A stretch of 64,000 nt of DNA. Origin: an uncultured Planctomycetia bacterium. GTDB lineage: Bacteria; Planctomycetota; Planctomycetia; Pirellulales; Thermoguttaceae. Both the position numbers and the translations under genes were made by a program. Numbering within the stretch: the stretch's first letter is position 1; every line of letters begins with the position of its first letter. Of the stretch, positions 14,912 through 64,000 are shown in pieces. The notes beneath the pieces are model-generated. The model saw only the letters and a program-made list of their open reading frames with translations, had not been told where the DNA came from and searched no databases. The stretch is from assembly GCA_963709175.1 (NCBI GenBank), contig CAVPVK010000010.1, positions 19,704-83,703 of the forward strand, written 5' to 3'.

Positions 14912-14918
14912 GCAATTC

Positions 14919-22174: not shown

Positions 22175-22191
22175 AAATGAATTATATGCAT

Positions 22192-22638: not shown

Positions 22639-22699
22639 GGGAATGTGGCTCCGGCTTTGTGGTGGTTGGAGTATGATAAAGTCGTTCGTAGTTCCGGCT

Positions 22700-23221: not shown

Positions 23222-23313
23222 GTGAGGAAAATGGGGGAAAAGAAAATGAATTGATCTTCTTTTCAAAATCTGGGAGTTGAGATTTGAAAATTAGGCAATG
23301 ACAGGAAAATGCC

Positions 23314-23375
23314 GGACAGGAAGATAATCACCATTCGCTCTTAGCCTCAATTCCCCGCACTGTCTCTTCCTGTCC
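23314..23375. repeat. Intercistronic hairpin (GGACAGGAAG / CTTCCTGTCC arms) between mvhA and the protease gene
   Basis: The arms are 23314-23323 and 23366-23375. The flanks have a heptamer-like periodicity (gacagga aaatgcc ggacagg). Confidence 0.5.
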
Positions 23376-23398
23376 CCCATCTTTTCGTCAGCATCTTT

Positions 23399-24862: not shown

Positions 24863-24866
24863 GGGA

Positions 24867-24952
24867 GGTCTTGGGTCTTAGGTCTTAGGTCTTGGGTGCG
24901 TACGATTTGCCGGCCCCAAGTCCTAAGACTTAAGACCTAAGACCCAAGACCT
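24867..24952. repeat. Palindromic array of GGTCTTA/TAAGACC heptamers (long hairpin) between mvhG and mvhA
   Basis: The left arm aggtcttgggtcttaggtcttaggtcttggg (24867-24897) pairs with cccaagtcctaagacttaagacctaagacccaagacct (24915-24952). The outer 22 nt are perfectly complementary. Confidence 0.85.
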
Positions 24953-24963
24953 GTAATCAATTT

Positions 24964-25977: not shown

Positions 25978-25992
25978 GATTATATCTCCCGT

Positions 25993-26069
25993 AGGCCGGA
26001 ACAAGCTTGCGCAGTCCCGGCAGCAATCTCTCGGCGTCTTGCCGGAACTGCGCAAGCTTGTTCCGGCCT
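25993..26069. repeat. Perfect 23-bp inverted repeat (stem-loop) between mvhD and mvhG
   Basis: aggccggaacaagcttgcgcagt (25993-26015) and its exact reverse complement actgcgcaagcttgttccggcct (26047-26069), with a 31-nt loop. It ends about 5 nt from the mvhD stop and begins 16 nt upstream of the mvhG start. Confidence 0.9.
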
Positions 26070-26073
26070 GCGG

Positions 26074-38284: not shown

Positions 38285-38300
38285 TCGTAACGCGAGGCGA

Positions 38301-38328
38301 GGGCGGCCTCGGTCAGCCGAGGCCGCCC
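38301..38328 (+). terminator. GC-rich hairpin after the MCP gene (no T tract)
   Basis: gggcggcctcgg-tcag-ccgaggccgccc, a perfect 12-bp stem. It may be an attenuator or mRNA-stabilising element rather than a full terminator. Confidence 0.4.
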
Positions 38329-38429
38329 GCCTAGACGTAATTCGCCTGACAAATGGTGGGACTCGCTCCGCTCGAGCCCACCCTTCACCTGCTACAAACC
38401 ACACTTCACATACACAAGGAGAACATTTC

Positions 38430-38965
38430 ATGTCCACCGTCATGCAAGAACCGCCCGCCGGCCTGGCGGAAAACACCGTCCGCGAGCAGACCCGCTCCGC
38501 CCGACCGGCTCGATGCAACTGGTGAGCTTCAAGCTCAGCGACGAAACCTACGGGATCGAAATCACCAAGATCCGCGAGATCATCCTCGTGGGCCAGATCA
38601 CGCGGGTCCCGGAAACGCCGCACTACATCAAGGGCTTGATCAATCTCCGCAGCTCGGTCATTCCCGTGATCGACTTGCGGGCCCGCTTCTCGCTGGCCGA
38701 GAACGAACTGACCCAGGACAGCCGCATCATGGTGCTCAACGTCGGCCGCCGCACGATCGGCATCGTCGTCGATTCGGTGAACGAGGTGCTGCGGGTGGCG
38801 CAGGACCAGATCTCGCCGGCCCCGCCCACCGTGGCCAGCCTGGGCAACCAGTACATGACCGGCCTGGTCCGGCTGGAGGAGCAATTGCTGATCCTCCTGG
38901 ACGTGGACCGGCTGTTCGGCGAGGAAGCCACCGCGGCCATGGACGAAGCCGTGGCCAACGGCTGA
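38430..38965 (+). CDS. cheW: Chemotaxis coupling protein CheW (1 frameshift near 38490)
   Basis: A strong RBS (AAGGAG) lies 8 nt before the ATG at 38430 (MSTVMQEPPAGLAENTVREQ). The frame then shifts into ORF 38513-38965 (QLVSFKLSDETYGIEITKIREIILVGQITRVPETPHYIKGLINLRSSVIPVIDLR). Confidence 0.85.
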
Positions 38966-39085
38966 AATTTTGGTGTGAAATAGAGGATCGGCGGCACGCC
39001 CGCGGGCGCCGCGGGCATGCCGACCGATCCACTCGCAGGATGGCAAGAGTGGCTTTTTTGCGGCGCCGTAACACGGGAGACGATC

Positions 39086-42349: not shown

Positions 42350-43019
42350 ATGATCAAACCGCTAACTGCAAACGTCACCTGTCACTGGCCGGGCTGCACG
42401 AGCTGTTCGCCTCGGCCACGCACGACGCCTCGGCCGCCATGTGCCGCTGGACCGACGGGATCATCACCGTCACGCTCGACGAGGTCCGGCAAGTCGCGCT
42501 GGAAGAGGTCGGCCGTCGAACTGGCCGTCGGCGACGAGCCGCTGACCATGGTCGTCATGACGCTCGACGGCGAACTCGGCGGCAGCATCATCCTGATGTT
42601 CGACGACGCTCAACGGCCGGCAACTGGCCGCGTCGCTGCTTGGGCCGCGAGGCCGGCACGGAACCCGAGTGGAGCGAACTGGAGAAGTCGGCGCTGATGG
42701 AGACCGGCAACATCCTCGGCTGCGCCTACGTCAACGCGCTGACGCGCCTGGTCGGCATGGACCTGCGTCCTTCGCCGCCCTACTTCATCCAGGATTTCGG
42801 GGCCAGCGTCCTCGAGCAGGCCCTGATGACCCAGGCCGCGGCCGGCGACAGCCTGTTGCTCTGCGACATCGGCTTCCACCGCAACGGAGGAAAGCTCGAT
42901 TGGCGGGTCGTCTTCGTTCCCACGCCCGGACTGCAGGAGTCGCTCAGCGGTCGCTGCATGCGGCCCCGGCTACGACAGTCCCGGAACCTGCCAGAGCTGT
43001 GCGACTACTCGCGACATGA
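42350..43019 (+). CDS. cheC: CheC-family CheY-P phosphatase (about 3 frameshifts)
   Basis: Segments are HELFASATHDASAAMCRWTDGIITVTLDEVRQVALEEV, AVELAVGDEPLTMVVMTLDGELGGSIILMFDD and SELEKSALMETGNILGCAYVNALTRLVG. The stop overlaps the cheD start (ATGA at 43016-43019). Confidence 0.7.
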
Positions 43020-43503
43020 TCACCACGACAAACACGACAACCCTGGAAACGCTGGTCGGCATGGGACAGATCGCGGCCGGCGGGCCGCCGCAGAAAATGA
43101 GGGCGGTCGTCGGCTCCTGCATTGCCCTGGCGCTGTACCATCCCCGGCTCAAACGGGGCGTCATGGCCCACATCGTCCTGCCGGACTCGGCCGGACGCGA
43201 CGGCACGCCGGGCAAGTTCGCCGATACGGCGATTCCGCAGGATGCTGGAATTGCTCAAGGAGTCGGCGCGCCGGCCACTGCCTGACGGCCAAGCTCGCCG
43301 GCGGCGCCAACATGTTCGGCAGTTCCGGGCCCTTGCAGATCGGCGATGCCAACATCGAGGCCGTTGCCCAGGCCCTGCGGACCGCCGGCATTCGCATCGC
43401 GGCCCAGGACGTCGGCGGAAATCGCGGACGGCGCGTGACCTTCGAATGCGACAGCGGGGCGATGATCGTCGAATCGGCCGGCCAGCCCACGAAAACCCTG
43501 TGA
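43016..43503 (+). CDS. cheD: Chemoreceptor glutamine deamidase CheD (2 frameshifts)
   Basis: ETLVGMGQIAAGGPPQKMRAVVGSCIALALYHPRLKRGVMAHIVLPDS..GKFADTAIP, then a shift into LTAKLAGGANMFG..IGDANIEAVAQALRTAGIRIAAQDVGGNRGRRVTFECDSGAMIVES. Confidence 0.8.
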
Positions 43504-43585
43504 TATCGTTCAAGTATACCGGCACGCACAGCCAGTCTGCGGGAAGGTTCGAAAACCAGTGCTATGCTTCAGGAGGCTTTGAACA

Positions 43586-43957
43586 ATGCCACGCAGACTA
43601 TTAGTCGCCGATGACGCCATGATCATCCGGCAGATCATCAAGGACATGGCCGTCGTCGCCGGCTGGGAAGTGGTCGGCGAGGCCAGCAACGGCCAGGAGG
43701 CGATCGACCGTTACCGGGAACTGCACCCCGACGCCGTGACCCTGGACCTGGTCATGCCCGAACACGACGGCCTGCATGCCTTGCACGGCATCATGGAGTT
43801 CGATCCCGAGGCCAAGGTCCTCGTGGTCAGTGCCCTGGAGCAGCGCGGCGTGCTCAAGGATGCCATCAAGGCCGGCGCCGCCGACTTTGTCGCCAAGCCG
43901 TTCGACAAGAAGAGCCTCCAGGCGACCTTGGAACAATTGGTCCCCCAGCCCGTCTAA
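43586..43957 (+). CDS. cheY: CheY-like single-domain response regulator
   Basis: Intact 123 aa: RLLVADDAMIIRQIIKD..DAVTLDLVMPEHDG..KVLVVSAL..ADFVAKPF. Confidence 0.9.
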   Translation: MPRRLLVADDAMIIRQIIKDMAVVAGWEVVGEASNGQEAIDRYRELHPDAVTLDLVMPEHDGLHALHGIMEFDPEAKVLVVSALEQRGVLKDAIKAGAADFVAKPFDKKSLQATLEQLVPQPV

Positions 43958-43967
43958 AGAGAAAAAC

Positions 43968-44467
43968 ATGAATGTCGAGTACATCAATCCCTTCCTGACG
44001 TCGACGATTTCGGTCTTCGATACGATGCTGAACTGCAAGCTGGAGCGAGGCACGCCGTACCTCAAGAACGGAACCCAACCGCAGCACGAGGTCAGCGGCG
44101 TAATCGGGCTTTCGGGTAAGGCCTTGGGCACGGTCGTCCTGGGCCTTAGCCGCGAGGCGGCCATCTCCGCCACCGAGGTCCTGCTCCAGGAGCGGCCGGC
44201 CGAAATCAACGGCGACGTCACCGATGCCGTCGGCGAACTGGTGAACATCATCGCCGGCAACGCCAAGGCCAGCTTGGAGCACCTGGAGATGAGCGTGAGC
44301 CTGCCGACGGTGATCACGGGCAAGAACCACTGCGTCGAATTTCCCACGCGGGTCACGCCGATCAGCATCCCCTTCACCTCGCCTTGGGGTGAAATTACCG
44401 TGGACGTTGGCCTGTATGAACTCCCCAGCGGTACGGTCGCCGACGCGGAAATGGAACAGGTGACTGC

Positions 44468-44471
<4 letters not shown>
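43968..44471 (+). CDS. cheX: CheX-type chemotaxis phosphatase
   Basis: ATG at 43968: MNVEYINPFLTSTISVFDTMLNCKLERG..VSGVIGLSGKALGTVVLGLS..AVGELVNIIAGNAK. The stop overlaps the ATG of the following kinase. Confidence 0.8.
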
Positions 44472-48328
<3,857 letters not shown>

Positions 48329-48382
48329 CAACCTCAACCACTTTCGTCCCTCCTGGCCGGAGGGACCTACGGAGAAACACCA

Positions 48383-48820
48383 ATGCCGATCCTCGAGCAT
48401 AAAACGACGCTCTTACTGGTCGATGACGACCGCAGCATTGTCCGCTTGTTGTCGAAGGTCATCGATCGCAACTTCGGCGATCGCATCACCCTGCACTCCC
48501 TGGCCGAACCTCAGGACGCCCGTCAATGGATCGCCCAGAACCTGGTCGACATCCTCGTGACGGATCTGGAGATGCCGGGCGTCAGCGGCCTGGAATTGCT
48601 CCGCTGCGCCAAGCGGAAGAACCCTTGTGCCCAGGTACTGTTCATCACGGGGCATTCGACCGTCCAGTCACTCATGGACGCCTTGGAGCTTGGCGCGACC
48701 GACTACCTGCTCAAGCCGATCGACCAGACGGAACTGATCGATCTGGTGGGCGATGCGGAACGGCGCTTGCGGCGGTGGCGCGAGGCCCTGCTCGGCACCG
48801 TTCAGGGCGTCTGGGCCTGA
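48383..48820 (+). CDS. Single-domain response regulator
   Basis: Intact 145 aa: LLLVDDDRSIVRLL..DILVTDLEMPGVSGLELL..VLFITGH..TDYLLKP. Confidence 0.85.
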   Translation: MPILEHKTTLLLVDDDRSIVRLLSKVIDRNFGDRITLHSLAEPQDARQWIAQNLVDILVTDLEMPGVSGLELLRCAKRKNPCAQVLFITGHSTVQSLMDALELGATDYLLKPIDQTELIDLVGDAERRLRRWREALLGTVQGVWA

Positions 48821-49103
48821 GGGACGGGCCCAGGCAAACCCGTCGATCGCTGTCGGTGGAGCTCACGGGCTGCCGGCAGGTGCCGTCCGCAGAATTGCAA
48901 GCGATTTGCGATTTCTTGCCGCCGCCGGGGGGGGCCATACCCGTGCGCTGAAACGGGTGCCAATTATGCCGGGTTTGACGGTCATTGCAAGCCGCGTTGG
49001 CATGAGCTACACTTACTACGTCACGCGGTTGAGTGGTCACTCCTGACGCGATTGCAGGCCAACGTGCTATTGGCGTGCGTCATCAAGCAGCTTTTCTACT
49101 CTC

Positions 49104-49865
49104 ATGAATTCACTGGCAATCAGCGGCATCATCTTCGCCTGCGTCTGCGGCGGTGCGCTTTTGGGAATGGTTCTGCGGGCTGTCCTTCCCGCGCAACACC
49201 TGGGCAGCGAGGCCAAGGATGTCGTCAAGCTGGGAATGGGCCTGCTCGGCACCATGACGGCGATGGTGCTCGGACTGATGATCGCCTCAGCCAAGAGCAC
49301 CTTCGATACGCAGCGGACGGGGCTGGCACAACTGGCGGGAAACGTGATCATGCTGGACCGGATCCTTGAACATTACGGTCCGGAATCGAAGGACGCCCGC
49401 GAAATGCTCCGCGCCTCCGTGGCCGACATGATCGCCCGGACGTGGGCCGCCGAGAGTTCCGCAGCCGGTCAGACCGGAAGCGGCCGCACCGAAGGTCGCT
49501 ACGAGGGACTTTTCGAGAAGGTTGAGGCACTGGCGCCGAAGAACGACGCTCAGCGGGCGTGGCAGGCGCAGGCCCTCAAGCTCTGCACCGACATGGCGCA
49601 AATGCGGCTGGGTGTTGTTCGCCCAGAAGGGGAGTTCCATCCCCATGCCCTTCCTGTTAGTGATGGTTGCCTGGCTGGCCTTATTGTTCGCCAGTTTCAG
49701 CCTCTTTGCGCCTCCCAATCCAATCGTGATTGTCACTTTGTTGGTTTCATGCTGGCCGTGTCCAGCGCGATTTTCCTGATCCTGGAACTTGACCGGCCCT
49801 TCGCCGGCGTGATCCAGATTTCGAGCGAGCCCTTACGCGCCGCGCTAACGATACTCGGGCACTAG
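49104..49865 (+). CDS. DUF4239-like membrane protein (internal compensated frameshift pair, about 49605 and 49745)
   Basis: An N-terminal TM (MNSLAISGIIFACVCGGALLGMVL) is followed by DVVKLGMGLLGTMTAMVLGLMIASAKSTFD. The alternative frame between the two shifts gives the expected TM helices (IPMPFLLVMVAWLALLFASFSLFAPPNPIVIVTLL). The family call is from memory. Confidence 0.5.
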   Translation: MNSLAISGIIFACVCGGALLGMVLRAVLPAQHLGSEAKDVVKLGMGLLGTMTAMVLGLMIASAKSTFDTQRTGLAQLAGNVIMLDRILEHYGPESKDAREMLRASVADMIARTWAAESSAAGQTGSGRTEGRYEGLFEKVEALAPKNDAQRAWQAQALKLCTDMAQMRLGVVRPEGEFHPHALPVSDGCLAGLIVRQFQPLCASQSNRDCHFVGFMLAVSSAIFLILELDRPFAGVIQISSEPLRAALTILGH

Positions 49866-50023
49866 AGGGAAAACGGGCACTATTCGTGCCAAGCGCCGTC
49901 CGGTCCGTTCCGGCAAATGGTGCTGTCACTTTTTTCCCTAGGGTCGGACCCTCGCTGGCATGGTGTCCGGTGTATTGACAACGGCGAGACGGAATTGACA
50001 CTACTAACCGATAACCCCCCAGA

Positions 50024-52890
50024 ATGGAAGTAACTCCCGATGCGAAGACTCTCCACTCGCGACCTCGTCGTGGCGCTCTTGCTGGCGCTCTGGCGATTCC
50101 CGGCTGTGAATCGCCCAAGGCGGGTCCGGCACTCGCAAAACCGGCCAAGGCCCCCGATCAACCGGTCGTCCTCGAATATAGGGAAATTGATCTCATCCCC
50201 GGTGAGGAGAAAACGGTCAAGGTAAAGTCAGGGACGGCCAAATCGGCCAAGGCTGAGAAGGAATCGGGATTGGTCGCGCAGGCCGACAATGACTCGGTCA
50301 CGGTCGCCGCCACCAAGGACGCCCAGGTCGGCGATTGCAGGATTATCATCAAGAATGGCAAGGCCAAGGGCCTGCTCACGGTTCATGTGAAGGCCGCCAA
50401 TTCCGATACGGCCAAGCCGGGCGTGGCGGCAGCCACACAGGGCCCGGCCGCGCCAGTGGAGGTCACCGGCACACTTGGCGCACCCAACGCCACGACAACC
50501 ATCAGCGGGCAGCAACTTCCGGCACTCGACCCGAGTTTCGGCGGAGTAATCAAGGGTAACGCCTTGGAATCCAAGGCCTGGTGGGCCCCGCGGATCGTGC
50601 CGCCCAAGAAGGCGCCCAACGTACTGTTGATCATGACCGACGACGTGGGCTTCGCCGCCCCGAGCACCTTCGGCGGCGTGATCCCCACGCCGGCCCTGGA
50701 CCGCATCGCCAAGGCTGGACTCCGCTACACCCAGTTCCACTCCTGTGCTCTTTGTTCGCCGACGCGGGCCGCCTTGATCACTGGCCGCAATCACCACTCT
50801 GCGGGCTTCGGCGTGATCTCCGAGCAGTCCACCGGTTTCCCCGGCTACAACAGCATCATCGCCAAGGACAAGGCGACCATCGGCCGCATCCTCAAAGACA
50901 ACGGTTACGCCACCTCCTGGTTCGGCAAGGACCACAACACGCCCACGTTCACCGCGAGCCAAGTAGGGCCATTCGACCAGTGGCCCATTGGCATGGGCTT
51001 TGACTATTTCTACGGCTTCGTTGGCGGCGACTCCAGCCAGTGGCAGCCAAACCTCTTCCGCAATACCACCCAAATTTACCCCTACGTCGGCAAACCGGGC
51101 TGGAACCTCACCACCGCCGAGGCCGATGACGCTATCGACTGGCTGCACCGCATCGATCAAATTGATCCGTCCAAGCCATTCTTCTGCTACTACGTGCCGG
51201 GCGGCACGCATGCACCACACCACGCCACGCCGGAGTGGATCAAGAAGATCAGCGACATGCACCTTTTCGACGGTGGCTGGAACAAGCTCCGCGACACGAT
51301 CTTCGCCAACCAGAAGAAGCTCGGCGTGATCCCTCAGAACGCGAAGATGACGCCCTGGCCGGACAAGCTTTTGAAACAGTGGGACCAACTTACCGCCGAC
51401 GAGAAGAAGCTGTTCATCCGCCAGGTGGACGTGTACGCGGCCTACCTGGCCTACACCGACCACGAGATCGGCCGGGTGATCCAGGCCGTCGAGGACATGG
51501 GCGAGCTCGACAACACGCTCATCATCTACATCAGCGGCGACAACGGATCTAGCGCCGAAGGCACGCTGATCGGCACGCCCAACGAGGTCGCCCAGTTCAA
51601 TGGCGTGGAGATTCCGGTCGAGCGCAATTGAAATATTTCTACGATGTCTGGGGCTCGGACAAGACCTACAATCACATGGCCGTGGCGTGGACGTGGGCCT
51701 TCGACACGCCGTTCAGTTGGACGAAGCAAGTGGCCTCGCACTTCGGCGGCACGCGTCAAGGCATGTGCGTCTCCTGGCCAGGTCACATCAAGGACGTGGG
51801 CGGCATACGCAACCAGTTCCACCACATCATCGACGTGGTGCCGACGCTTCTGGAAGTCAGCGGGATTCCCGCGCCCAAGCAGGTGGACGGCATCCCGCAG
51901 TCGCCCATTGAAGGCGTGAGCTTCGCCTACACCTTCGACAAGGGCAGTGCCGACTCCCCATCGCACCACAAGACGCAGTACTTCGAGATGATGGGCGATC
52001 ACGCCATTTACCACGAAGGCTGGATCGCCAGCACCAAGGTCATCCGCCCGCCCTGGGAAGTTTTCGGAGCCGTCAATCCGGATCCGCTGAACAACTGCAC
52101 CTGGGAACTTTATGACCTGACCAAGGACTGGACCCAGGACGAGGACGTGGCGGCCAAGTATCCCGACAAGCTCACGGAGCTGAAGCAATTGTTTCTCGCG
52201 GAGGCCAAAAAGTTCCAGGTTTTGCCGTTGGACGCTTCCGTGGCGACGCGGATCGTCGCCCCGCGGCCGAACCTCACCGCCGGCCGCAGCGAATTCATCT
52301 ACACCCGGCCGATGACGGGCCTCCCGCAAGGCGATTCGCCCCTGCTTTTGAACTGCTCCTACAACATCGCGGCCGAGATCGATGTGCCGGAAGGCGGCGC
52401 GGAAGGCATGATCCTCACTTCCGGCGGGCGCTTCGGCGGTTACGGTTTCTACCTGCTCAAAGGCAAGCCGGTCTTCGTCTGGAACCTGGTCGACGTCAAG
52501 CGCCAACGCTGGGAAGGCAAGGAGCCGGTCTCGCCCGGCAAGCACACCGTGGAATTCAATTTCAAGTACGATGGCTTAGGCGCGGGTACGCTGGCGTTCA
52601 ACAGCATCAGCGGCCTGGGGCGGAGCGGCACCGGCACGCTCAAGGTGGACGGCAAAGAGATCGTCACCCAGAAGATGGAGTGGACGCTGCCGATCATTAT
52701 GCAGTGGGACGAGAGCTTTGACATCGGCTCCGACACGGGCACGCCGGTCTGCGACGAAGATTATCAATGTCCCTTCCCGTTGACGGCCAAATTCAACAAG
52801 CTGACGATCAAGGTCGATCGGCCGCAATTGTCGCCCGCCGACATCAAGAAGCTCGAGGAGGCCACGCGGAACAACAAGGCCAGCGAGTAG
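50024..52890 (+). CDS. Arylsulfatase (formylglycine-dependent sulfatase family) with an N-terminal lipoprotein signal and Ig-like extension; frameshift near 51620 and possibly near 50090
   Basis: NVLLIMTDDVGFAAPSTFGG..FHSCALCSPTRAALITGRNHH carries the C-x-P-x-R FGly motif. ORF 51628-52890 continues the sulfatase C-terminal domains (SHFGGTRQGMCVSWPGHI). An alternative start at ATG 50040 (MRRLSTRDLVVALLLAL) would join AIPGCES. Confidence 0.85.
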
Positions 52891-52995
52891 GATTTGATCC
52901 GTGAGCTAGAATAACTTTAACGACCACGAGGATTACCGTAGATTGCTGAATGCCAAGGATGGTTCAGTCCCACTTCCTTCCCGGAGCATTCCCCG

Positions 52996-54057
52996 ATGAT
53001 ACCAAGGTTTTTCAATTCTCTCGCTTTCCGCGCGGCGGCGATGGTATTTCTTGCCGGCCGTATTTTGGCCTGCCCGGCGGCCGCCGCCGATAAGTTTGAC
53101 AAATCCGACAAGACTGTCAAACCCGACACGCCGGCAACGAAACCGGCTCCCCTTCCCAAGACGATTTTACTGCCAATGGCAACGCCGGCCCCGTCATTGG
53201 CCGAGGCGGCAATCCGGGCCACGGCCAAGGAATACACCGCGGCGTTCGACCGCGGCGATGCCGCCGCTCTGGCCGCCATGTTCACCCCCGCTGCCTCGGT
53301 GGCGGACGACGAAGGTCAGATCCTTCACGGTCAGACCGCCATCCGCGACGAATACGCCCGGCTCTTCAAGGCTTATCCCGGGGCCAAGGTCGTGGTGGCC
53401 ATCAAGTCAGTGGAATTCCCCGCGCCGGAGATGGCCATTGAGGATGGCCTCACCCAGGTCTCGGCGGAGCAGGTTGGCCCGCCCGTGATTAGCCGCTATA
53501 CCGTCTGCCACGTGCTGATGAATGGCAAGTGGCTGATGGCCAGCGTTCGCGAGTCGCGGGTTCGCCTTGCCAGCAATCACTCGCGCGTGGAAGATCTCGA
53601 CTGGCTGGTCGGCACGTGGCGCGCCGAACGGGACGGCAAGAGTGCCGTTTCCAAGATCTACTGGATCGCCAACAAGAGCTTTCTCGCGCGGGACTACAAG
53701 GTCTCCGTCGATGGCATCCAGGTCTCTGGCGGCAGGCAGATCGTCGGCTGGGACCCGAACGCCGGCAAGCTCCGCTCATGGTCCTTCGACGCCTCGGGCG
53801 GATATGGCACAGGTCTCTGGACGCCCACGCCCGACGGCTGGCAGATCGAGACCACCGGGGTTCTCGCCGATGGCACGCCCACCTCGTCGCGCGACACGCT
53901 GATCCGGGTTCCCGGCGCCGACAACGTTTTCGGTTGGAAATCGGTGGCTCGCACCATGGGCGAGGTTTCCTTGTCCGACACGCCGGAAGTCGTATTCGAC
54001 CGCCTCGTTGAGAAGAGCGTTGAGAAGAGCGTTGAAAAGAACGTCAAGAAGAAGTAG
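52996..54057 (+). CDS. Secreted NTF2-like (SnoaL/DUF4440-type) two-domain protein
   Basis: Intact 353 aa with a signal peptide. AIRATAKEYTAAFDRGDAAALAAMFTP..GQTAIRDEYARLF is typical of SgcJ/EcaC-like NTF2 folds. The C-terminal tail has VEKS repeats. Confidence 0.55.
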   Translation: MIPRFFNSLAFRAAAMVFLAGRILACPAAAADKFDKSDKTVKPDTPATKPAPLPKTILLPMATPAPSLAEAAIRATAKEYTAAFDRGDAAALAAMFTPAASVADDEGQILHGQTAIRDEYARLFKAYPGAKVVVAIKSVEFPAPEMAIEDGLTQVSAEQVGPPVISRYTVCHVLMNGKWLMASVRESRVRLASNHSRVEDLDWLVGTWRAERDGKSAVSKIYWIANKSFLARDYKVSVDGIQVSGGRQIVGWDPNAGKLRSWSFDASGGYGTGLWTPTPDGWQIETTGVLADGTPTSSRDTLIRVPGADNVFGWKSVARTMGEVSLSDTPEVVFDRLVEKSVEKSVEKNVKKK

Positions 54058-54106
54058 CGTCGATATCGACTTCCCTTTGGCCTATTGATCTTGCGGAGAT
54101 ACTCAC

Positions 54107-55561
54107 ATGAACAAGTTCCTTGCGGCGGTTGTCTTCCTGGCGTTGGCGATCGGTTGTTTGCCGGCAGCCGTCTTTGCCCGCGGTTTCGGCGGATTTGGCG
54201 GCGGCGGCTTCCACGGCGGGGGGTTCAGCGCCGGGGGTTTCCACGCCGGCGGGTTCAATGCCGGCGGGTTTGATCGCGGCAGTTTCGGCGGCGCCAGTTT
54301 CGACCGCGGCAGTTTTGGCGGTGCCAGCTATGGTGGTTTCGATCGCGGCAGTTTCGGCGGTGCTAGCTACGGCGGTTTTGACCGCGGCGGCGATAGCTTC
54401 GGCACTGTTGACCGGGGCAGCCTCGGCGGCGCCACTTACGGCAGTTTCGACCGCGGTGCTGCCGGCGGATTTTCCGCGGGCGGCTACCGCGCGGCCGACT
54501 ATGGTGACTCCGTCAGCCGCGGCCAACTCAACGGTTTCCTCGGGCTGCCTACCGACGGCGGCTTCCACACGTCGGGGGGCTACACGGCCCGTGGCTACGA
54601 GGGTCCAGGCGGTACCGAGGTCGTCCACGGCGCGGCCGGCGTGCAAGGCGCGGCGGTCGGTCCCGGCGGGATGGCGGCCGGTGGTCGCTACGCCAGCGGC
54701 ACCGCCATCAAGACTCCCAACGGCAATGTCTATACCCATGAAACCACCGCCGGGCGCGGCGTGGCCGCCGGGCCCGACGGCGTCGCGGCTGGCCACTATG
54801 CCGCCTCGGGCACGGCCGTCAACGGCCAGAGGGTTGCCGGCCGCGGATACGCGGGCTACGGCACCCACGCCTGGTCGCCCACCTATCGCCATGCACAGGC
54901 CATGGGATGTTACGGCTGGGCCGCGGACCGCGGCATGTACTCGGGCGCCTGGTGCGCGAGGCATCCCTGGGCGTGGTACCCGGCGGCCTACTCTGCCGCC
55001 GATTGGGCCGCGGCGGTTTGGGCGCCGGTAGCCTGGGCCTCCCTCGACGGGTTCCTCGGATATGCCGACGCCCAGCCCTATAGTTACGATTACGGCGACG
55101 ACATCGTCTACCAGCACAACAGCGTCTACTATGGCGGCCAGTTGGCCGGCTCCGCCGACCAGTATTATCAGCAGGCCGCCACGCTGGCCGAATCGGCCAA
55201 CAACACCCCGGCAGTCAACGACCAGTGGTTGCCACTTGGTGTCTTCGGCCTCGTGGAGCCGGGCAAGCAGACGCCGACGATGATCTTCCAACTGGCCGTC
55301 GATAAGAACGGCGTAATTCGCGGCAACTACTTCGATCAGGTGACGCAAACCAACCAGCCCGTGACCGGGGCCGTTGACAAGAAGACCCAGCGGGTCGCCT
55401 GGCGGGTCGCCGGCGGCAAGGAGCTGGTGGTCGAAACCGGCCTTTACAACCTCACGATGAGCGACTCGACGGCCCTGGTCCATTACGGCGCGGACCGCAC
55501 CGAGCAGGAACTTCTCGTACGGATGCAGCAGCCGCCGGCGGACCAGACGGCCGCCGAATGA
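54107..55561 (+). CDS. Secreted glycine-rich repeat protein with a conserved globular C-terminal domain, function unknown
   Basis: Intact 484 aa with a signal peptide (MNKFLAAVVFLALAIGCLPAAVFA). Tandem GGF(H/D)(A/R)G(G/S)F(G/N).. and GGFDRGSFGGASY repeats fill 54180-54480. The C-terminal about 150 aa are not repetitive (WLPLGVFGLVEPGKQTPTMIFQLAVDKNGVIRGNYFD). Confidence 0.6.
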   Translation: MNKFLAAVVFLALAIGCLPAAVFARGFGGFGGGGFHGGGFSAGGFHAGGFNAGGFDRGSFGGASFDRGSFGGASYGGFDRGSFGGASYGGFDRGGDSFGTVDRGSLGGATYGSFDRGAAGGFSAGGYRAADYGDSVSRGQLNGFLGLPTDGGFHTSGGYTARGYEGPGGTEVVHGAAGVQGAAVGPGGMAAGGRYASGTAIKTPNGNVYTHETTAGRGVAAGPDGVAAGHYAASGTAVNGQRVAGRGYAGYGTHAWSPTYRHAQAMGCYGWAADRGMYSGAWCARHPWAWYPAAYSAADWAAAVWAPVAWASLDGFLGYADAQPYSYDYGDDIVYQHNSVYYGGQLAGSADQYYQQAATLAESANNTPAVNDQWLPLGVFGLVEPGKQTPTMIFQLAVDKNGVIRGNYFDQVTQTNQPVTGAVDKKTQRVAWRVAGGKELVVETGLYNLTMSDSTALVHYGADRTEQELLVRMQQPPADQTAAE

Positions 55562-55607
55562 TCTTCGACTGTGGGTTCAATTTCAACCATTACGAAAGGA
55601 CATAGCC

Positions 55608-56207
55608 ATGACCAACGAACCGCAAATCTCTTCGCCTGTCTCGCCCGTTCCGACGGCCGCGCTGATCGTCCGACACGAGTTGCACCACGCCCGCAACCAC
55701 TGGTGGTGGTTCCTGCTGTTGGGGGTCGTGCTCGTGATCTGCGGCACAGCCTCCTTGGTGTATCCGCTTCTCGCCAGCCTGGCAGCGGTCACTTTTCTCT
55801 CGGTCATGCTGCTGGTGGCGGGTGTGACCACGCTCGTTGGCTCATTCTGGATCGGATAGTGGAGCGGCTTCTTGCTCAACGTGCTGGTGGGGTTGCTCTA
55901 TCTGGCCGGTGGCTTCGTCGCCTCTGAAAAGCCGGTCTTCACGGCCGTCGCAGTCACGGTCTACCTGGCCGTCTCGTTCATGGTCATGGGCATCTTCCGC
56001 GTCCTGGCAGCGCTGGCCATGCGCCATGCGCAATGGGGTTGGACGCTATTGAACGGCTGCGTGACCTTCCTCGTCGGCCTCGTAATCTATCGCCAACTGC
56101 CGTTTGACGCCATTTGGGTGATCGGCTTGCTGGTGGGTTTGGAACTCCTTTTCGCCGGCTGGACCTGGGTCATGCTATCCCTTGCGATCCGCCGCATCCC
56201 GGCGTAG
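55608..56207 (+). pseudogene. hdeD: HdeD/DUF308-family membrane protein interrupted by one in-frame TAG (55857-55859)
   Basis: ORFs 55608-55859 and 55872-56207 are in the same frame. The joined sequence ..VTTLVGSFWIG*WSGFLLNVLVGLLYLAGGF.. has the repeated TM hairpins of DUF308. Confidence 0.7.
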
Positions 56208-56218
56208 GCGAGCGGGCA

Positions 56219-59200
56219 TCAAAGCCTGCCGTCGGCCAGTAATTCGTCTACGGCATTTCTATCGAGATCGCCGGCGGAGCGACGCTGTTGGCTTTGCGCG
56301 TCGGCCACATCCCACCATAGCCAGGCCAAGTTGCCGGTCGCGCGAAGGGCAATGCTCGTTTGCAGGGCCGCGTCGTGGGCGCTTGTTTGCCGCAAGAGGC
56401 TCGCGGGAGGAGCAACGCTGCCGGAATGCTGCACTACTGCGGGCGCGATGCTGAGGACCGGCATGACGACCTGTAGTGACGCTTCGGAAGGCGATTGGGC
56501 CACAGCAACTTCTGGCTTCGCGTTCCCGGTTGGTGCCGAGGAAGCCAAGGGCGACGCCACAGCGGTGGGATCGAAGACGAATTCTCCGCCGCCGCCGATC
56601 ACAAGTGCCGTGCCAGTCGGCAAGGCGGTCGAACTGGTGATGATCAGCGTGCCCGACATGACGTTGGTAGTTCCCGCGTAGGTGTTCGCGCCCGAAAGCA
56701 CCATGTCGCTGCCGCCGCTCACGGTCACGCCGCCCGGTCCGCCAAGATTGGCGCTGACCATGCCGTCGTTGAGTTGGTAGGCGGCGGCATAGACCGGCCC
56801 GCCCGTGACGCTTCCGCCGTAATCCACCGTAAGGGTCCCACCGGTCGAGAACAGGCCGGCGGGATCGACGCTGAGCATCGTGCCGCTGCCCGTCACGCTG
56901 GTGTTGGTAATGGTAAGCACGGCACTTGGGTTGATAGCTACTCGGCGCTGGACTGGACTACGAAAGGGCGTTGGTGCTTGTGCGAAGTGGCATTTGACAA
57001 CGCTGCGCTGTGCTGACGCTGGCGTCTACGGCGTTGTAGGGGTAGGACGGACGAGTTTTGGTATATTGGGTATTAGTTAATTGCTCACTTCGCTGGGTGT
57101 ATAAGTCAGAGTGGTTGCGTAAGTGAACTGATAGGTAGGGGAAAAGATAGATGTGTGCTGGTAGTGTAGATAGTGATGTGAGCGTGGCAGCGAATAAGAG
57201 GTAGGGGTTGGTGACTACGATCTGGCTGTCACTATTGCTGATGATTGGGTAGGTGGGGACAATTCGTAGTTTGGAACGTTAAAATAGACTTAGATGGCCT
57301 CTGTTGGTATCTACGCTGATAGTCACTGTGTGTGCTGGTGATAGGTACGCTCTTTAGGGCTGACACTGTTATCACAGGTGCTGCCACGTAAGTGTACTGG
57401 TATCGGTAGGCGTAGTGGGAGACGTGACGCTAGAGGTAGCCACTGTCACGTACACGTCTCAGGGCTACTGGCTGGGAAGAGGACGTATAGTATAGTCACG
57501 GAAACGGAGAATATAGAACAGGTGGTTTGGCAGAAGTAGATGGTAGTGGTGTATCTCAGGTTAGTGTGTTGATATACAAGTAGTTGCTGCTCGCTACGGG
57601 GTTATAGAGGGGATAGATAGAGGTCACGCTGGAGTGAAGACGTAATCAAAAAGAACAGGAATACTGTTATATGATGGTAGGCGTTGTCACGGTGACGTCT
57701 ACGTAGCTGGTGGCCTCGCTGGTCGCTGCGGGACTGATAGCTACGATAGTGTGAGCGCTCTGATTGTCTGGTATTGCTGACGATAGTACGAGCGGTTTGT
57801 AGAAGAAGTATACGCTGTGGCGCGCGGTTAGGCTAGTGTGGGTAATAGCTACTTGGTTGCAGCTGGAGATAGATAAGCTGGGAGGACTGACAGAGGTGAT
57901 TTGGGGCGTGGGCAGGTAAGTGAACTGATAGGTAGGCTGGGAAATGGCAGAAGTGCGGCTAGCGGTGGTCACGTGATATAGACAGTGCGAGGATTGTCGC
58001 TGGGGCTGGTAACGACAAGCTGGCTGTCGGTGCTGGCTGTCGATAGTGGCTGGGAAATAGCCGAAATTGACGGACGACGCATTGGCCAATCCCGTGCCGG
58101 TGATCGTGACCGTCTGGCCACCGTTGACCGACCCGGCGGAGGGACTGACCGCGGCGATGATCGGCGCGGCCACGTAGGTGTACTGGTCCGCCGGCTGGGA
58201 AATAGGCGACGTGCCATTGGGGTCTGTCACCGTCACGTCCACCATGCCGGCTGTCGCACCGGCGGGCTGAGGGCGATGATGAACGAGTACGCGGCCTCAA
58301 GGATCATGCCCGAATTGGAACCGAAGTCTACCGCCGTGGCGCGCGCCCAGATCGGTGCCGTAAAGAAAGACCGACTTGCCACCCGACACCGGGCCGAGCG
58401 GCGTTCCGATCGAGGTAACCGCGGGTCCGGCGACGTAGGTAAATTGATCGGCCGGATTAACGGCCGATGTTCGCCAGTGGTTGTCACGGTCAGGTCGACG
58501 GTGCCCAAACCCTCGCGGGGCTGGTGACGACGAGTTGTGTTGTCGAATCGGTGACAATCGTGCCCGGGTAAACATCGCCCTGGCTGTCGGTGAAATCGAC
58601 CACCGAGGCGTTATCCAGATCGGTGCGGTGATAGTCACCTGACTCCCGCCCCCCACCACGCCTGCCGACGGACTCACGCCGTCAATGACGGGTTGCGGCT
58701 GGATGTAAGCGAACTCGTTGGCGGAAGAGGTGGGCGAGGTTCCGCCCGGCGTGACCACGGTCGCATCCACGATGCCGTCGCTGCCAGCGGGAGTGGTGGC
58801 GTGATCGATCTGTTCGCGTTGACCGTGAAGCCGGCCGCCGGGACGCTGCCGAAGTCGACCGCCGTGGCGTTGGCGAGATTCGTGCCGGTGATCGTCACCT
58901 GGTCGCCGCCGCGCGGAAGCCCGTAACTGGAATGACGGCCTGAGACCGCCGGCGACACCACGTAGGTGAACTGGTCCGCCGGCGACGTGTACGAAGTGCC
59001 GCCGTTGGTGGTCACGATGATGTCGACATGTGCCAGAGTATGCATCCGGGCTGGTGACGACGATCTGGTTGTCGGTATTGCTGCCGGTGACGATTGCAGC
59101 CGGAAAGACATCGCCCTGGCCGTCGTTGAAGACGACACTCGACGCGTTGTCCAGGCCGGTGCCGTACACTGTCACGCTGGTACGCCGCCGTCCGGGCTGG

Positions 59201-62200
59201 CATTGGGGCTGACGTTCGTAACGACGGGCGCCGCCACGTAAGTGAACTGGTCGGCCGGCGTAGCGAGCGACAGGCCCCCCAGACCCAACACCTGGACGTC
59301 GACCGTGCCTGGCTGCGGCGGGAACGAAGAGTTGAATCTGCGTATCGTTAGTGAAATAGTAGTTCGGAATCGCCACGTTCGGACCGAAGTCGACGGCCGG
59401 CGCGTTTTCCAGGTTCGTGCCCGTGATCGTCAACCAAGTGCCGCCGCCCAGCGGACCGCTCGATTGGGAAAGGCCGGTGACCGTGGGCGGCAGGTAGTAG
59501 CCATAGCCATAGGCAACGGTCGATGTGCCGTAGGGCGTCGTCACGCTGACGTTCACGTACTGCTCCGCGTCACCGGTTGATTCGGGATTGATGACGACAA
59601 GCGTGTCCGTCCCCTGGTAGTCCGTATTGCTGACGATCGTGGCCGGGTTGCCGCCAAAAAGAACCGATGAGAAACCGACGAGCCCCGTGCCGGTGATCGT
59701 GACCTGCGTGCCGCCATAGACCGATCTCGACGGGGGACTGACAGCCCCGATCGCAGGCGCGGGCATAAAGGTGAATTGATCGGGCGTGCCGGTGGCCGAA
59801 GTTCCGCCCGGAGTCGTGACGACGATATCGTACGTTAACAGATTGACGCCGTTGTAGTTCCCCGTGGGATTATCGGGACTGGTAACAACGAGTTGATTGT
59901 CTGAATCGCTGACAATCGTGCCCGGAAAGCTGTCACCGTAGCTATCGACGAAATCGACGCTTGAGGCGTAGGCCAGGCCGGTACCGCTGATCGTAGACTT
60001 GCGTGGCACGGTAATAGATCCTGTCGGCGGACTGACCGCCGAGACGTTGGGAATCGCCGCAAAGACGAACTGATCTTGCGGCGTAATGTCGGTCGTGCCG
60101 TAGGCGTTCGTCACCGAAACATCGACGGTTCCGGCGGCTTCCATCGGGCTGATGGCCGCGATCGATTGCTGCGAGATAACCTGAGTGTCGGTCGCGGGCA
60201 CGCCGCCGAAGTAGACCTCCGGCGCAGTCCAGGTTGGAATCCGTCAAGTCGGCGCCGTTGATCGTGACGGTGGTGCCGACCGCAATTGAGCCGCCTGCCA
60301 CCGAACCGGGGATGGATGGAGTCGACAGGCTGGCGATGAATGGGGCATCCGTATAAGTGAACCCGTTGGCTGGCTCGTTTATCGCGGAGGTGCCGTCGGG
60401 GGTTGTCACCGTCACGTCCACGGTGCCCAGGCCGGAATACAACCCACCCTGCGTCGCATCCGGAGTGATGGCCACGACCTGGCTGTCGGTATTACTGACA
60501 ATGTGCCGGGTACTGGCCAAAGTCGACTGCGGTTGCGTTGGCGAGGTTGGTGCCGGTGATGGTCACCGTGGTGCCGCCCTCCGCGGCGCCGGAAGGCGGA
60601 GTCAAGCCCGAAGGCACACTCAAGCCCGTGACGGCCGGACCCGGCACGTAGGTGAACTCATCGGCGGCCGAGGTGGCCGATGTAGCGCCATAAGACGTGG
60701 CCGTGACGTCCACCATGCCCAATTCGTTGCCGGGCGGGCTGATGACGAAAATCGTGCTGACCGTATCGGCGTCCTCGGCCGGAGGCAACGGGTATGCCGT
60801 CTCCGAGTAGCCGGTGAACGTGGCCGGATTGCCGCCGAAGTAAACTTGACCCACGTTGGACAAGCCGGTGCCCGTAATCGCCACGGTGTTTCCGCCGCCG
60901 ATGCCTCCGGACGCGGGACTGATTCCCGTGATGGTCGGGACCGCGTAATAGGTGTAGACCGGAACGAAGGCGATAGTGGAACTGCCTTCCGGAGTCGTCA
61001 CGATTTCGGGCGCGGGGCCAGGGTTGTTCGGGGGGACGGTAACCGTGATCGAACTCGAGGAAACGCTGGTAATAGTGCCGGGCACGCCGCCAAAGTCCAC
61101 GGCGGTGTCGGCCCCCGTTGGGTCATCCGGCGCCGTCAGGTTGAAGCCCGTGAGCGTAATCGACGCGCCGCCCAGCACGGGGCCATAGTAGCCGCCAGTC
61201 AAGACGAGCGGGGCTTGGGTGTACGTAAATTGGTCGGCTGGGACAGCGAGCGATTCGCCCAAATTCGTGACGACCTGCACGTCGATCGTCGCGGCGGCTG
61301 GTCCGGGAGTCCGAGAGCAATTATCGTCCCGGCGGCGTTTACCGAGAACTCGGAACTTGTAAGATCGGTCTGGGTATAGGGAATGGAACTGCCGTAGATC
61401 ACGTTCGTGGCGCCGGTGAAATTCGCCCCGTAGATATACTGAGTGTAGAATTCGCCGGGGGAAGTGTAGGCCGGCCCTACGCTGTAACTGAGCCCTGTTA
61501 CTACCGGCAGGTTGCCATAGGTGTATTTGTCGTTGGGGGAAGTGGCCGAAAGCCCGCCCGACGATTGCACCCGCACGTCCACCGCTCCGGTAGCGTCGCC
61601 GGGACTCGCCGGAATGGTAACCGAGATCGACTCGTCCGAGTAGAAGGTAATGCCGCTGAAGGGGATCACGACGCTGCCGAAATCGACGGCCGAGGTGCCG
61701 TCCGACTCCAAGTTTGTGCCGCTGATGGTCAGCGTTCCGCCACCCGACGTGAGCCCGGACGCGGGACTGATGCCCGTGACCGTCGGCGCGGGGTAGCCGT
61801 AAGTGAACTGATCCGCGGGCCGCGAAATCGCCGACGTACCCAGGGGTGACGTGACCTGCACGTCCACGGTGCTGGGGCCCAAGTAGGGACCGGTCACCAC
61901 AATGGCATCGGGAGAGATGGAGTCAATCTTGGCCCCGTAACCGTCGAACGTCACCGACGTTGCGCCGGTGAAACCAATTCCGCTGATAGTCACCGTCGTG
62001 CCGCCCCCCACCGGCCCGCTCGTCGGATTTAACCCGGTCACCGCCACGCCGGTCGTGTACGTGAAGTTCAAGCTGTTGGACGTTACCACCGATTGCGAGC
62101 CGGGCCCGTCGGGCGTGGTCACGGTCACCGGCACCGTGTCGCCGGGCGTGTTCGGCGGATTCGTCGGAGTCGGATTCGTAACCACGACTTCATTGTACGA

Positions 62201-64000
62201 GTCAGACTCAATATAGCCCGCGATGCCGTTGAATAGTACACTGGCGCCCATGAGGTTTTCGCCGGTAATCGTCACCGAGCTCTGGTAGGTCGCGGGACCG
62301 GACAACGGTGAGAGGCTGGAGATTACCGGGGGAACGATCTCGTAGTTGTATTGGCCCGCCGCGGTCATTCCGTCGGGCGTTTCCACGTATACGGTCGCCA
62401 GACCCAGGGGGCCGGGCGGCACGGTCACTTCAATTTGACCGGGAGTATCCGAGACGATTGTGGCGGGGTTGCCCAGACCGAAATAGACGCTTACGCCGCC
62501 GAGTGTCGCGTCGCCCAAGTTGGAGCCGTTGATGGTCACGGTGTTGCCGCCTTCATAGGGACCGTAATTCTGCGGGGTCAATTGCGAGACGGCCGGCCCG
62601 GGCACGTAGGTGAACTGGTCCGTGGGCGCGGTCGACGTGGCCGAAAACCCGCCTGCCGTCAACACCGAAATTGCAACCGGCCCAGTGGCCGTCGAAATGG
62701 GACTGGTGGCGAAAACAACCCAATTCCCGGTGGCTGAGTCTATCGAATCGAAAATGTTGGGCTGCACGACAAGTGTCGTGCCGAACAGCACTCCCACCGC
62801 GTTGGCCAGATTCGTTCCCGAGATCTCCACCTGGGTGTTGCCGCTGAGCGGGCCAGAAGCCGGCAGACCGGAGAGACCGGTCACGTCGGTCACCGTCGGC
62901 GGCGGCACGTAGGTATAGGCGTCGGCCGGCCGGGAAAGGGCCGAAGTGCCGCCCGGCGTGGTCACCGTCACGTCGACCGTGCCCGCCATACCCGCCGGCA
63001 CGTCGGCCGTAATCTGCCAAAGATTGGGATTCTGAGCGGGTATCAGTTGTACGTCGGAGACGATCGTGCCTGCATTCTGGCCGAAGCTCACGTTGGCGTC
63101 GGCGGTTGGGCCCAAATACGTACCGACGATGTTCACCTCAGACTGGCCCCCGAGAATTGGGTCGATGCTATTTAGCGGGCCAGCCGCGGGAGTGACGCTT
63201 TGCACCACCGGCACGCCAAAGTAGGTGAACTGAGACTGATCCGCTTCCGGCAGACGTAAACCCCCGCTCGGGATGTAGGTTCCGTTCGGATTCGAAGTGC
63301 CGCCCGGCGTGGCCACCGTCACGTTGACCGTGCCCGGGCTCGATTGCGCCGGATCGTAATCGATCGTTATCTGCGTGCCTGCCGCGTTGACGGATATGTT
63401 GGGGAACTCGAAGCGGCCAGAGCCAATAATGAATGGCACCTCGACGCTGCCGAAGTATATGGCGATATAGTTCTCCAAGTTCGTGCCCGTGAGCGTCACC
63501 GTTTGGTTGCCGGCCAGAGCGCCAACGGGCGGCCCGGCCGCCGTGCTGATGTAATCGATGTTGGGGGGCGGAATGTACGTGAAAGCATCGGGATCGGGGG
63601 ATCCCCCGTAAGGTTCCGAGGTTCCGCCCGGCGTGGTCACGTGTACGTCGACCGTGCCGCTGCCCATCGGGCTTACCACGTAGAGCGTCGTCGCGCTGTC
63701 CTGGCTGAGGTATTGCGGATCGCTGTCGATGGCGCCTGGTTCGCGCCGAAGTAGACGGAGGTAACGCCGTTGAGGTTCGTGCCCTGCAACTCCACAATCT
63801 CGTTGCCGCCGCCCGGACCGGTCTGCGGCGAAACGCTCGTAATGATCGGCGGCGGCAGGAAGGTGAACCCGTCCTCTAGGATGAAGGCGCCCTGCGGCGT
63901 TTGCACCTCGACGTTGACCGTCGCGGGCGACGCGAGGAGCTCGATGGGCGTCTCCACCACGAGGGAAAATGGTCCGTCGCTCCCCGGCTGGATCGTGCCG
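56219..64000 (-). CDS. Giant IPT/TIG (Ig-like) repeat cell-surface protein with C-terminal autotransporter-type beta-strand repeats; 5' end outside the window; many frameshifts and a degenerate internal block
   Basis: Minus-strand ORFs 63673-63960, 61199-63679 (826 aa, intact), 60492-61280, 59942-60520, 58297-60201, 57667-58245 and 56219-56920 all encode units of about 90 aa. The unit pattern is P..GP..GGT.VTI.GTNL..A..V.FG...A......S.T.I.V.SP....GTVDVTVTTPGGTSA.S.ADQFTY. The last ORF carries LSGANTYAGTTNVMSGTLII. Confidence 0.8.
57040..58080 (-). other. Degenerate, C-poor (plus strand) / G-poor (coding strand) block of about four IPT repeat units with stops in all frames
   Basis: See the findings. 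The roughly 270-nt periodicity is retained, marked by the QFTY/QYTY-coding gtaagtgaactg or gtaagtgtactg at 57119, 57388 and 57917. No ORF longer than about 60 aa appears on either strand between 57017 and 57666. Confidence 0.7.

Follow-up and report, generated by a model that had tools for sequence, protein, structure and literature searches.

This report concerns a guanine-depleted tract within a giant adhesin gene of an uncultured Planctomycetia bacterium, located in a stretch of 64,000 nucleotides (the window) of contig CAVPVK010000010.1, assembly GCA_963709175.1. The tract covers positions 56892–58065 of the window, and about half of the guanines of its coding strand, which is the minus strand, are replaced or missing when it is compared with the orthologous locus of a second assembly, L004 (ENA ERZ25039454 contig_12392), obtained from another sample than the window. 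We consider it probable that the tract results from strand-specific miscalling of guanine in a thinly covered, strain-variable stretch, and that it is most likely no true sequence. A sequence-only reading of the same DNA had listed four possible causes without choosing one, namely decay under strand-asymmetric mutation, targeted diversification, recombination with a diverged low-GC copy and a strand-specific basecalling or assembly artefact. The last of these is the best supported by the present data, and the other three are contradicted by them.

The tract was delineated from its composition. In a 1-kb profile of the plus strand, the bin 57001–58000 has a GC content of 0.50 and a GC skew of +0.41; all remaining bins of the window have a GC content of 0.57–0.68 and an absolute GC skew of at most 0.09. 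Profiles at 50 nt, 200 nt and 1 kb, a check proposed by the sequence-only reading, agree in showing the region of about 56900–58065 as the sole extended composition outlier of the window, and a 150-nt scan of the 64 kb revealed no second tract, only short intergenic blips. The plus strand of 57030–58060 contains 23.6% A, 14.4% C, 35.7% G and 26.4% T, vs. 29.3% C and 33.9% G in the adjacent repeats, so that the earlier hand count (about 14% C, 33% G and 47% GC) was essentially right. In the same interval, CC dinucleotides are nearly eliminated (4 observed vs. about 95 expected from the flank frequency). AC is almost the same, GC and TC are moderately down, and CT, TA and AG are up two- to three-fold. 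The near absence of CC on the plus strand was used to set the limits 56892–58065, that is an extent of about 1.17 kb with 14% C, 36% G, about 50% GC and a GC skew of +0.3 to +0.6. The block had previously been placed at 57040–58080; its existence stands, but its limits are wider and sharper. The tract is also found in the public record. Indeed, a 192-residue open reading frame (ORF) at 57667–58245, which includes 130 codons of the block, is 100% identical to P0007, a protein of a 208,103-bp NCBI/ENA contig.

A protein search with a frame-corrected translation running over the 5′ edge of the tract gave two close matches, P0007 (100%), which is the source ORF, and P0008 (72%). Over the first 70 residues, P0008 and the window differ at a single position. 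Beyond these, P0008 reads ...TAGGTSAISQPADQFTY...GGNQVAITGTGL...AATGEATGYVDVTVTTP vs. ...TASRTSAISQPTYQFTY...SCNQVAITHTSL...AATSEATSYVDVTVTTP in the window. L004 is the contig that encodes P0008 and is collinear with the window from 64000 down to 56568 in a single alignment. Over the tract, it has a coding-strand G content of 0.30, 112 GG doublets, ORFs matching TIG, and intact IPT units followed by the linker, vs. a G content of 0.15 and 5 GG doublets in the window. The sequence-only reading had held that normal-GC, intact repeats in an independent assembly would indicate an artefact. Such repeats are present in L004, for which, as another sample, a real allele difference is conceivable. As an observation on L004 itself, its positions 10181–11371 are also noisy, the intact IPT units falling in about five frame segments over 1.2 kb.

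Base by base, the difference between the two assemblies is carried by guanine. From L004 to the window, 184 of the 357 coding-strand guanines of the tract differ (G>A 74, G>T 73, G deleted 24, G>C 13), vs. about 4–6% of the 830–834 non-G positions, which are thus 94–96% identical. The Fisher p-values for guanine changes in the tract are 2e-75 relative to non-G positions and 2e-112 relative to the guanines of the flank. Deletions concern 6.7% of the guanines in the tract vs. 1.0% in the flank, and non-G indels and mismatches in the tract occur at about twice the flank rate. The C content of the coding strand is unchanged between the two assemblies (0.34 vs. 0.36), and the upstream flank, 58066–64000, matches L004 at about 98% and shows no base bias. 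Hence, the earlier view that G had been lost from the coding strand, mainly by substitution, is borne out. Read on the plus strand, the C>A, C>T and C>G changes previously seen by eye amount to 40% C>T, 40% C>A and 7% C>G, with 13% of C deletions. Simple cytosine deamination had been judged insufficient, and G>T is indeed as common as G>A. Two further comparisons were made. A distant relative, L001 (51% in the C-terminal domain), has a normal composition and is too far off to inform, and a scan of GTDB genomes with an 826-residue IPT ORF found no relative and hence no orthologous adhesin, which implies that the source genome is not among the species representatives.

The guanine changes follow a defined pattern when L004 is taken as reference. 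Their rate is even along the tract, at about 50% of G per 60 nt, and both ends are sharp, the changes setting in and ceasing within about 15 nt. At the 5′ edge, for instance, 0 of 19 guanines are changed at 58120–58061 and 9 of 19 at 58000–57942 in the per-60-nt table. The rate depends on the 3′ neighbour (GpG 76%, GpA 65%, GpC 35%, GpT 29%; context p from 1e-7 to 1e-12) and on the position in a run, with 76% for the 5′ G of a run, 51% for the 3′ G and 34% for an isolated G. A guanine following A is mostly spared (14% changed). The main outcome is T for an isolated G and A for the 5′ G of a run. Among the 112 GG doublets of L004, 4 survive in the window, and GG>AG is the commonest outcome (29/112). 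Moreover, occurrences of the same 7-mer have the same outcome in 65% of pairs, vs. 42 ± 6% in shuffles keeping the NGN context. The replacement base does not copy its neighbour (23/160), and non-G differences do not cluster beside changed guanines (15 vs. 12.4 ± 3.0).

With respect to coding, 38 stops are created over the three frames for a random expectation of 37.2 ± 3.1, and stop-codon avoidance in the tract is therefore nil. At its start, the tract stays open for 130 codons (composition-based p of about 0.01), which is accounted for by the IPT units, which have few codons that G>A or G>T can make into stops. Glycine codons are lost at positions 1 and 2. From the random level of stops and the loss of glycine codons, it follows that the process is blind to coding. 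The edges of the tract also disregard domain boundaries, and neither Rfam nor Tandem Repeats Finder gave a match.

The host gene lies on the minus strand and leaves the window at 64000. As previously proposed from the sequence, it encodes a giant IPT/TIG adhesin. Pfam identifies IPT/TIG repeats (TIG PF01833; E-values of 1.5e-48, 6.7e-24 and 5.7e-12) followed by a C-terminal PATR domain (PF12951; 4.6e-05, below the gathering score), and homologues carry PF12951. The features of this region are as follows.

58066–64000, minus strand: IPT/TIG repeats of the adhesin gene that are unaffected and match L004 at about 98% without G bias.

56892–58065, minus strand: G-depleted tract, made of four IPT/TIG units and the linker to the C-terminal domain, from composition and the comparison with L004.

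57916–58173, minus strand: IPT unit across the 5′ edge of the tract, intact from 58173 to about 58066 and G-depleted below; G content of the unit 0.23.

57650–57915, 57388–57649 and 57119–57387, minus strand: three wholly affected IPT units, G content 0.14–0.16, with in-frame stops and several frameshifts.

56892–57118, minus strand: affected linker from the last IPT unit to the PATR domain, with the last G loss at about 56904; its counterpart in L004 reads ...TWTPGEVGNWTNAQWTGTVLSDPDNAVDASVGGSGS...

56219–56891, minus strand: C-terminal PATR-repeat domain, of normal composition, identified by Pfam (PATR) and matched at 100% by P0001.

Despite the loss of guanines, the tract is recognizable as IPT sequence. 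The repeat period of about 265–270 nt is retained, with FTY anchors at 57119, 57388 and 57916 (the unit boundary near 57650 is weaker and was set by eye), and translation in the three minus-strand frames recovers the peptides SPTYQFTY, YQYTYVAAPVIT and PIISNSDSQIVVTNP. The homology to IPT units, the period of about 270 nt and the peptides quoted in the sequence-only reading are thus all found again, as are the stops in all frames and the loss of glycine. Each minus-strand frame of the tract has 10–16 stops and 1–2 glycines, vs. 37–38 glycines in the L004 orthologue. Frameshifts, as seen in the three-frame translation, break the adhesin gene along its full length and not only within the tract, the frame of 58066–64000 being interrupted roughly every 100–300 codons.

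The paralogous units give the same picture, albeit less directly. IPT units of the gene are 40–64% identical to one another at the DNA level, and the comparison was limited to columns conserved among 15 intact units, which were themselves scored leave-one-out. In the three wholly affected units, 33–37% of consensus guanines are kept, vs. 75% in intact units, and the excess changes at consensus G are G>A (25 vs. 10%) and G>T (17 vs. 4%). Consensus C, A and T are retained as in intact units, and 0 of 36 consensus GG doublets are kept. The spectrum of degenerate vs. intact units, another check suggested earlier, is thus G-specific with an excess of G>A and G>T. These columns point to otherwise ordinary IPT units in which a single base of one strand has been altered, and not to a diverged module. 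The paralogue spectrum was qualitatively right (G-specific, G>A and G>T, GG the worst affected) but is replaced by the direct comparison with L004.

The tract lies at the edge of a variable region. Below 56891, down to 56568 (L004 11372–11695), the window and L004 are only about 80% identical, with a transition-rich, protein-conserving divergence. Such an ordinary, protein-conserving divergence points to a different allele of the PATR domain, and the drop of identity at 56891 means that the 3′ edge of the tract coincides, within about 15 nt, with a haplotype switch with respect to L004. It may be noted that, with a PATR domain about 80% and an IPT region about 98% identical to L004, the adhesin alleles look mosaic or recombinant. 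About 320 nt from the 3′ edge of the tract, at about 56568, a further discontinuity is found.

56560–56575, no strand assigned: junction common to two other assemblies, at which L003 switches to unrelated genes and L004 ends.

L003 (ENA ERZ25039472 contig_37451) is 98.8% identical to the window over 43018–56563, and near-perfect over the last 1 kb or so. Past about 56563 (about 13568 in L003), it enters ribokinase-like and pectate-lyase-like genes, without the adhesin, into which the window goes on at this point. Judging from these alignments, the junction represents either the limit of a strain-variable island or a branch point of the assembly graph. Since L003 lacks the adhesin beyond the shared point, the adhesin would be a strain-variable island with the tract at its edge.

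The contig is error-rich. In the adhesin region, the window shows 46 one-base deletions vs. 7 insertions in 6 kb relative to L004, many of them in short homopolymers, and this indel rate is two to three times that between the window and L003 in the core region. Elsewhere in the window, several genes are split by frameshifts, with Pfam profile coordinates running on from one ORF into the next.

50024–51631 and 51628–52890: sulfatase split by a frameshift (Pfam).

44468–47563 and 47160–48047: PAS/GAF histidine kinase, HisKA and HATPase_c split by a frameshift (Pfam).

4075–5778 and 5604–6401: Laminin_G_3/PATR protein split by a frameshift (Pfam).

14712–15689 and 15571–16248: sugar transporter split by a frameshift (Pfam).

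As read from these broken frames, indel errors are present throughout the contig. Regarding the platform, sister contigs are named in Flye style, and the GTDB genomes that come closest, judged by the NiFe hydrogenase (94% at the amino acid level), are Nanopore metagenome-assembled genomes (MAGs) of Planctomycetia from Microflora Danica, whose pipeline uses Nanopore reads, Flye with --meta --nano-hq and one round of Medaka (PMC12313526). The contig may therefore come from this or a similar pipeline. The homopolymer-length spectrum, used as a platform fingerprint, showed no clear cut-off.

Taken together, these data favor miscalling of guanine. L004 has normal IPT-coding sequence over the tract, and the changes are limited to one base and one strand, next to an unbiased upstream flank. 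Guanine deletions rise together with guanine substitutions, as reported for a basecaller meeting an altered base, and the outcomes follow the extended k-mer context. The changes start and stop abruptly, the 3′ edge being at an allele switch and near the junction of two other contigs. No selection is apparent, since glycine codons are destroyed and stops are at the random level. Finally, the contig is rich in errors, and the sister names and nearest relatives point to Nanopore/Flye/Medaka. A plausible scenario is as follows. The gene itself would carry ordinary IPT/TIG units at the tract, like L004. The consensus of about 1.17 kb would probably rest on a single long read, or on very few, all of one orientation and with coding-strand guanines systematically miscalled as A or T, sometimes as C, or skipped. 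The errors would have been left uncorrected, thin coverage being expected in a strain-variable island beside a haplotype or assembly junction. As for the physical cause, the strand that was read may have belonged to a native molecule with altered guanines (lesion or modification), or a transient pore state may have collapsed the discrimination of G-containing k-mers. A base modification present genome-wide, combined with single-orientation coverage, was also considered; it is unlikely with one tract in 64 kb and is further disfavored by the rest of the thinly covered adhesin gene, which has no G or C bias.

Published Nanopore errors provide partial parallels. With 8-oxo-deoxyguanosine (8-oxo-dG) on one strand, about 40% of site calls are wrong (deletions 16%, C 13.5%, A 12.5%), the opposite strand is clean and the error depends on context, from 1.4 to 91% (PMC12141616). 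Modification-induced, strand-specific errors persist in Nanopore-only assemblies (PMC11610603; bioRxiv 10.64898/2026.03.20.713089), and phosphorothioate and 7-deazaguanine systems (dnd/dpd) cause high error rates with some models (bioRxiv 10.64898/2026.03.20.713089). The errors linked to modifications and lesions in these three studies (PMC11610603, PMC12141616, bioRxiv 10.64898/2026.03.20.713089) share with the tract the restriction to one base and one strand, the dependence on k-mer context and the mixture of substitutions and deletions, at rates of about 40–50% per site where the affected strand is read; such errors can also reach the consensus. In contrast, the published cases concern sparse motif sites spread over the genome, with mostly C>T and G>A (deletions and C for 8-oxo-dG), whereas about half of the guanines are affected here over a contiguous 1.17 kb, G>T equals G>A in frequency, and the rest of the 64 kb shows nothing similar.

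Several points weigh against a miscalling origin. Low coverage and single-strand support at the tract are what we infer, and the origin of the contig in the Microflora Danica or a similar pipeline is deduced from naming style and nearest relatives only. L004, another sample with another allele in the C-terminal domain, shows the unmutated form and is not the source DNA. An error that is specific for G, strikes 52% of the guanines and yields G>T and G>A equally often corresponds to no Nanopore error mode that we found documented: errors due to methylation occur at sparse motifs and consist mainly of C>T and G>A, and those at 8-oxo-dG are mostly deletions and C (PMC12141616). In addition, the non-G positions of the tract are nearly of flank quality, which is odd for a bad read or a signal glitch.

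The main alternative is a genuine hypermutation of guanines on one strand of this allele, which would have left the dominant strain of the sample with an adhesin gene whose 3′ part is non-functional and full of stops. We regard it as unlikely, even when a variant resembling diversity-generating retroelements (DGRs), discussed below, is counted in. The mutations would have arisen in a single-stranded, plus-sense intermediate, through alteration of C in 5′-YC-3′ or misreading of G before a purine, and would have been fixed by replication; such an intermediate could be DNA resected where recombination took place, transforming DNA entering the cell, or cDNA made from mRNA. The strict strand and base specificity, the sharp ends of the tract, one of them at an apparent recombination breakpoint with respect to L004, the quality of the non-G positions, close to that of the flank, and a number of stops at the random level, as for unselected damage, would all agree with such an event. 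So would the preference for GpG and GpA, with GG>AG as the commonest doublet outcome. This preference resembles that of APOBEC3G/3F-type editing of retroviral cDNA and of dCTP-starved reverse transcription.

The mutational spectrum and the setting are difficult to reconcile with this alternative. G>T and G>A are equally frequent, and deletions make up 13% of the events, which fits neither deamination nor a single lesion type. When a cytidine deaminase is considered, whether APOBEC/AID-like or a bacterial deaminase toxin, the dinucleotide preference (5′-YC on the edited strand) is the one observed, but transitions are far from being the only changes. No reverse transcriptase and no template copy are found in the 64-kb window, the outcomes are in part dictated by the surrounding 7-mer, and the noisiest, strain-variable part of an error-prone contig is where the tract is located. 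To our knowledge, no bacterial process changes about half of the guanines on one strand over 1.2 kb. The full claim of a real tract, in which a saturating, single-strand, G-specific hypermutation (G>A and G>T, at GpG and GpA) abuts a recombination breakpoint in a natural planctomycete population, is slightly less likely still.

Known hypermutation systems are only partly alike. APOBEC3G/3F hypermutation of retroviral cDNA and kataegis, the strand-coordinated clustering of mutations on damaged single-stranded DNA, have in common with the tract one strand, one base, the GpG/GpA preference (complement of 5′-YC), many stops and a tract-like extent. However, they are known from eukaryotes and viruses, their changes are nearly all G>A (or C>T and C>G), and, except for retroviral editing, they are sparser by orders of magnitude. 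In the tract, G>T makes up 40% and deletions 13% of events, and no retroelement is present. Fungal repeat-induced point mutation also makes repeated DNA AT-richer and stop-riddled, and can be locally strand-asymmetric. Nevertheless, it causes only C>T in CpA and needs repeats more than about 80% identical, whereas the IPT units are 45–60% identical and transversions in the tract are as common as transitions.

In the DGR-like variant, which we hold to be very improbable, guanine instead of adenine would be mutagenized, and the tract would correspond to a variable region into which an error-prone reverse transcriptase had copied an intact template repeat. The replacement of about 50% of one coding-strand base, the sharp limits and the position towards the 3′ end of a gene for a surface protein with Ig-like domains would fit. 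The replaced fraction and the polarity resemble adenine mutagenesis in DGRs. However, the differences are at G and not at A, and the tract measures 1.17 kb rather than about 0.1–0.2 kb. Pfam gave no RVT match in about 40 ORFs of the window, which is a part of the full 208-kb contig, and a sensitive blastn search of the window for a template-like copy of the tract returned only 71–86% patches to paralogous units. L004, the intact counterpart, is an orthologous allele with the same flanks and not a template repeat. Guanine deletions and frameshifts occur, the frame is not kept and stops are not avoided. Functional diversification, among the causes listed by the sequence-only reading, would avoid stops and is contradicted by their random level.

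An old decayed module, a bona fide linker module low in glycine and G, or a patch from a diverged low-GC homologue is equally improbable; the low GC content, the loss of glycine and the many stops would be expected, but the non-G positions are 94–96% identical to the orthologous allele, whose flank is at 98%, so that the change has to be recent and base-specific and not due to a diverged copy. Ordinary decay would touch all bases, whereas non-G positions are as conserved as in intact paralogues. With a diverged low-GC copy, both G and C would be expected to fall and the differences to lie at third positions, whereas C is untouched and G is lost at amino-acid-defining codon positions, the GG doublets of glycine codons being destroyed. 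Here again, the indifference of the tract edges to domain boundaries does not fit.

Apart from the adhesin gene, the window contains other features of interest. A single ORF of 1814 amino acids at 7043–12487 combines a truncated GH32, Laminin_G_3, five PATR repeats and a PEP-CTERM anchor, and runs on into an N-terminal methylation motif and a DUF1559 domain. It resembles two genes fused in frame, probably via a lost stop or an indel. The region 54100–55000 is very GC-rich (0.68–0.74) and has long ORFs at 54044–55483 (minus strand) and 54107–55561 (plus strand), neither with a Pfam match. A strong A-over-T skew of +0.2 to +0.3 is seen at 36000–39000 over genes for HAMP-repeat chemoreceptors, which belong to a chemotaxis cluster (CheA-like, CheW, CheD and response regulators). 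At 21830–26073 lies a gene cluster for a NiFe hydrogenase, with HypA and both the large and the small subunit; the large subunit is 94% identical to those of two Microflora Danica Planctomycetia MAGs. This match places the organism in Planctomycetia, near MAGs of Thermoguttaceae/Pirellulales type, and DUF1559, the sulfatases and the PEP-CTERM proteins agree with it.

If the tract is an artefact, it represents a conspicuous error signature that is simple to screen for in public long-read MAGs, namely a kilobase tract in which one base is halved on one strand, its homodinucleotide is abolished and stops appear in all frames. Such tracts would make false pseudogenes and distort composition scans, and a filter combining skew and dinucleotide counts would catch others. 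As this error mode differs from published methylation-type errors, its cause, either damaged or modified guanines or a pore-state glitch, merits a look at signal data. If, on the other hand, the tract is real, it would reflect a targeted or accidental hypermutation without precedent in bacteria. A hitherto unknown bacterial process would then act on a single-stranded DNA or cDNA intermediate, and candidates would include a retrohoming-like event with a G-unfaithful polymerase, dCTP-starved synthesis, or heavy base damage fixed by translesion synthesis.

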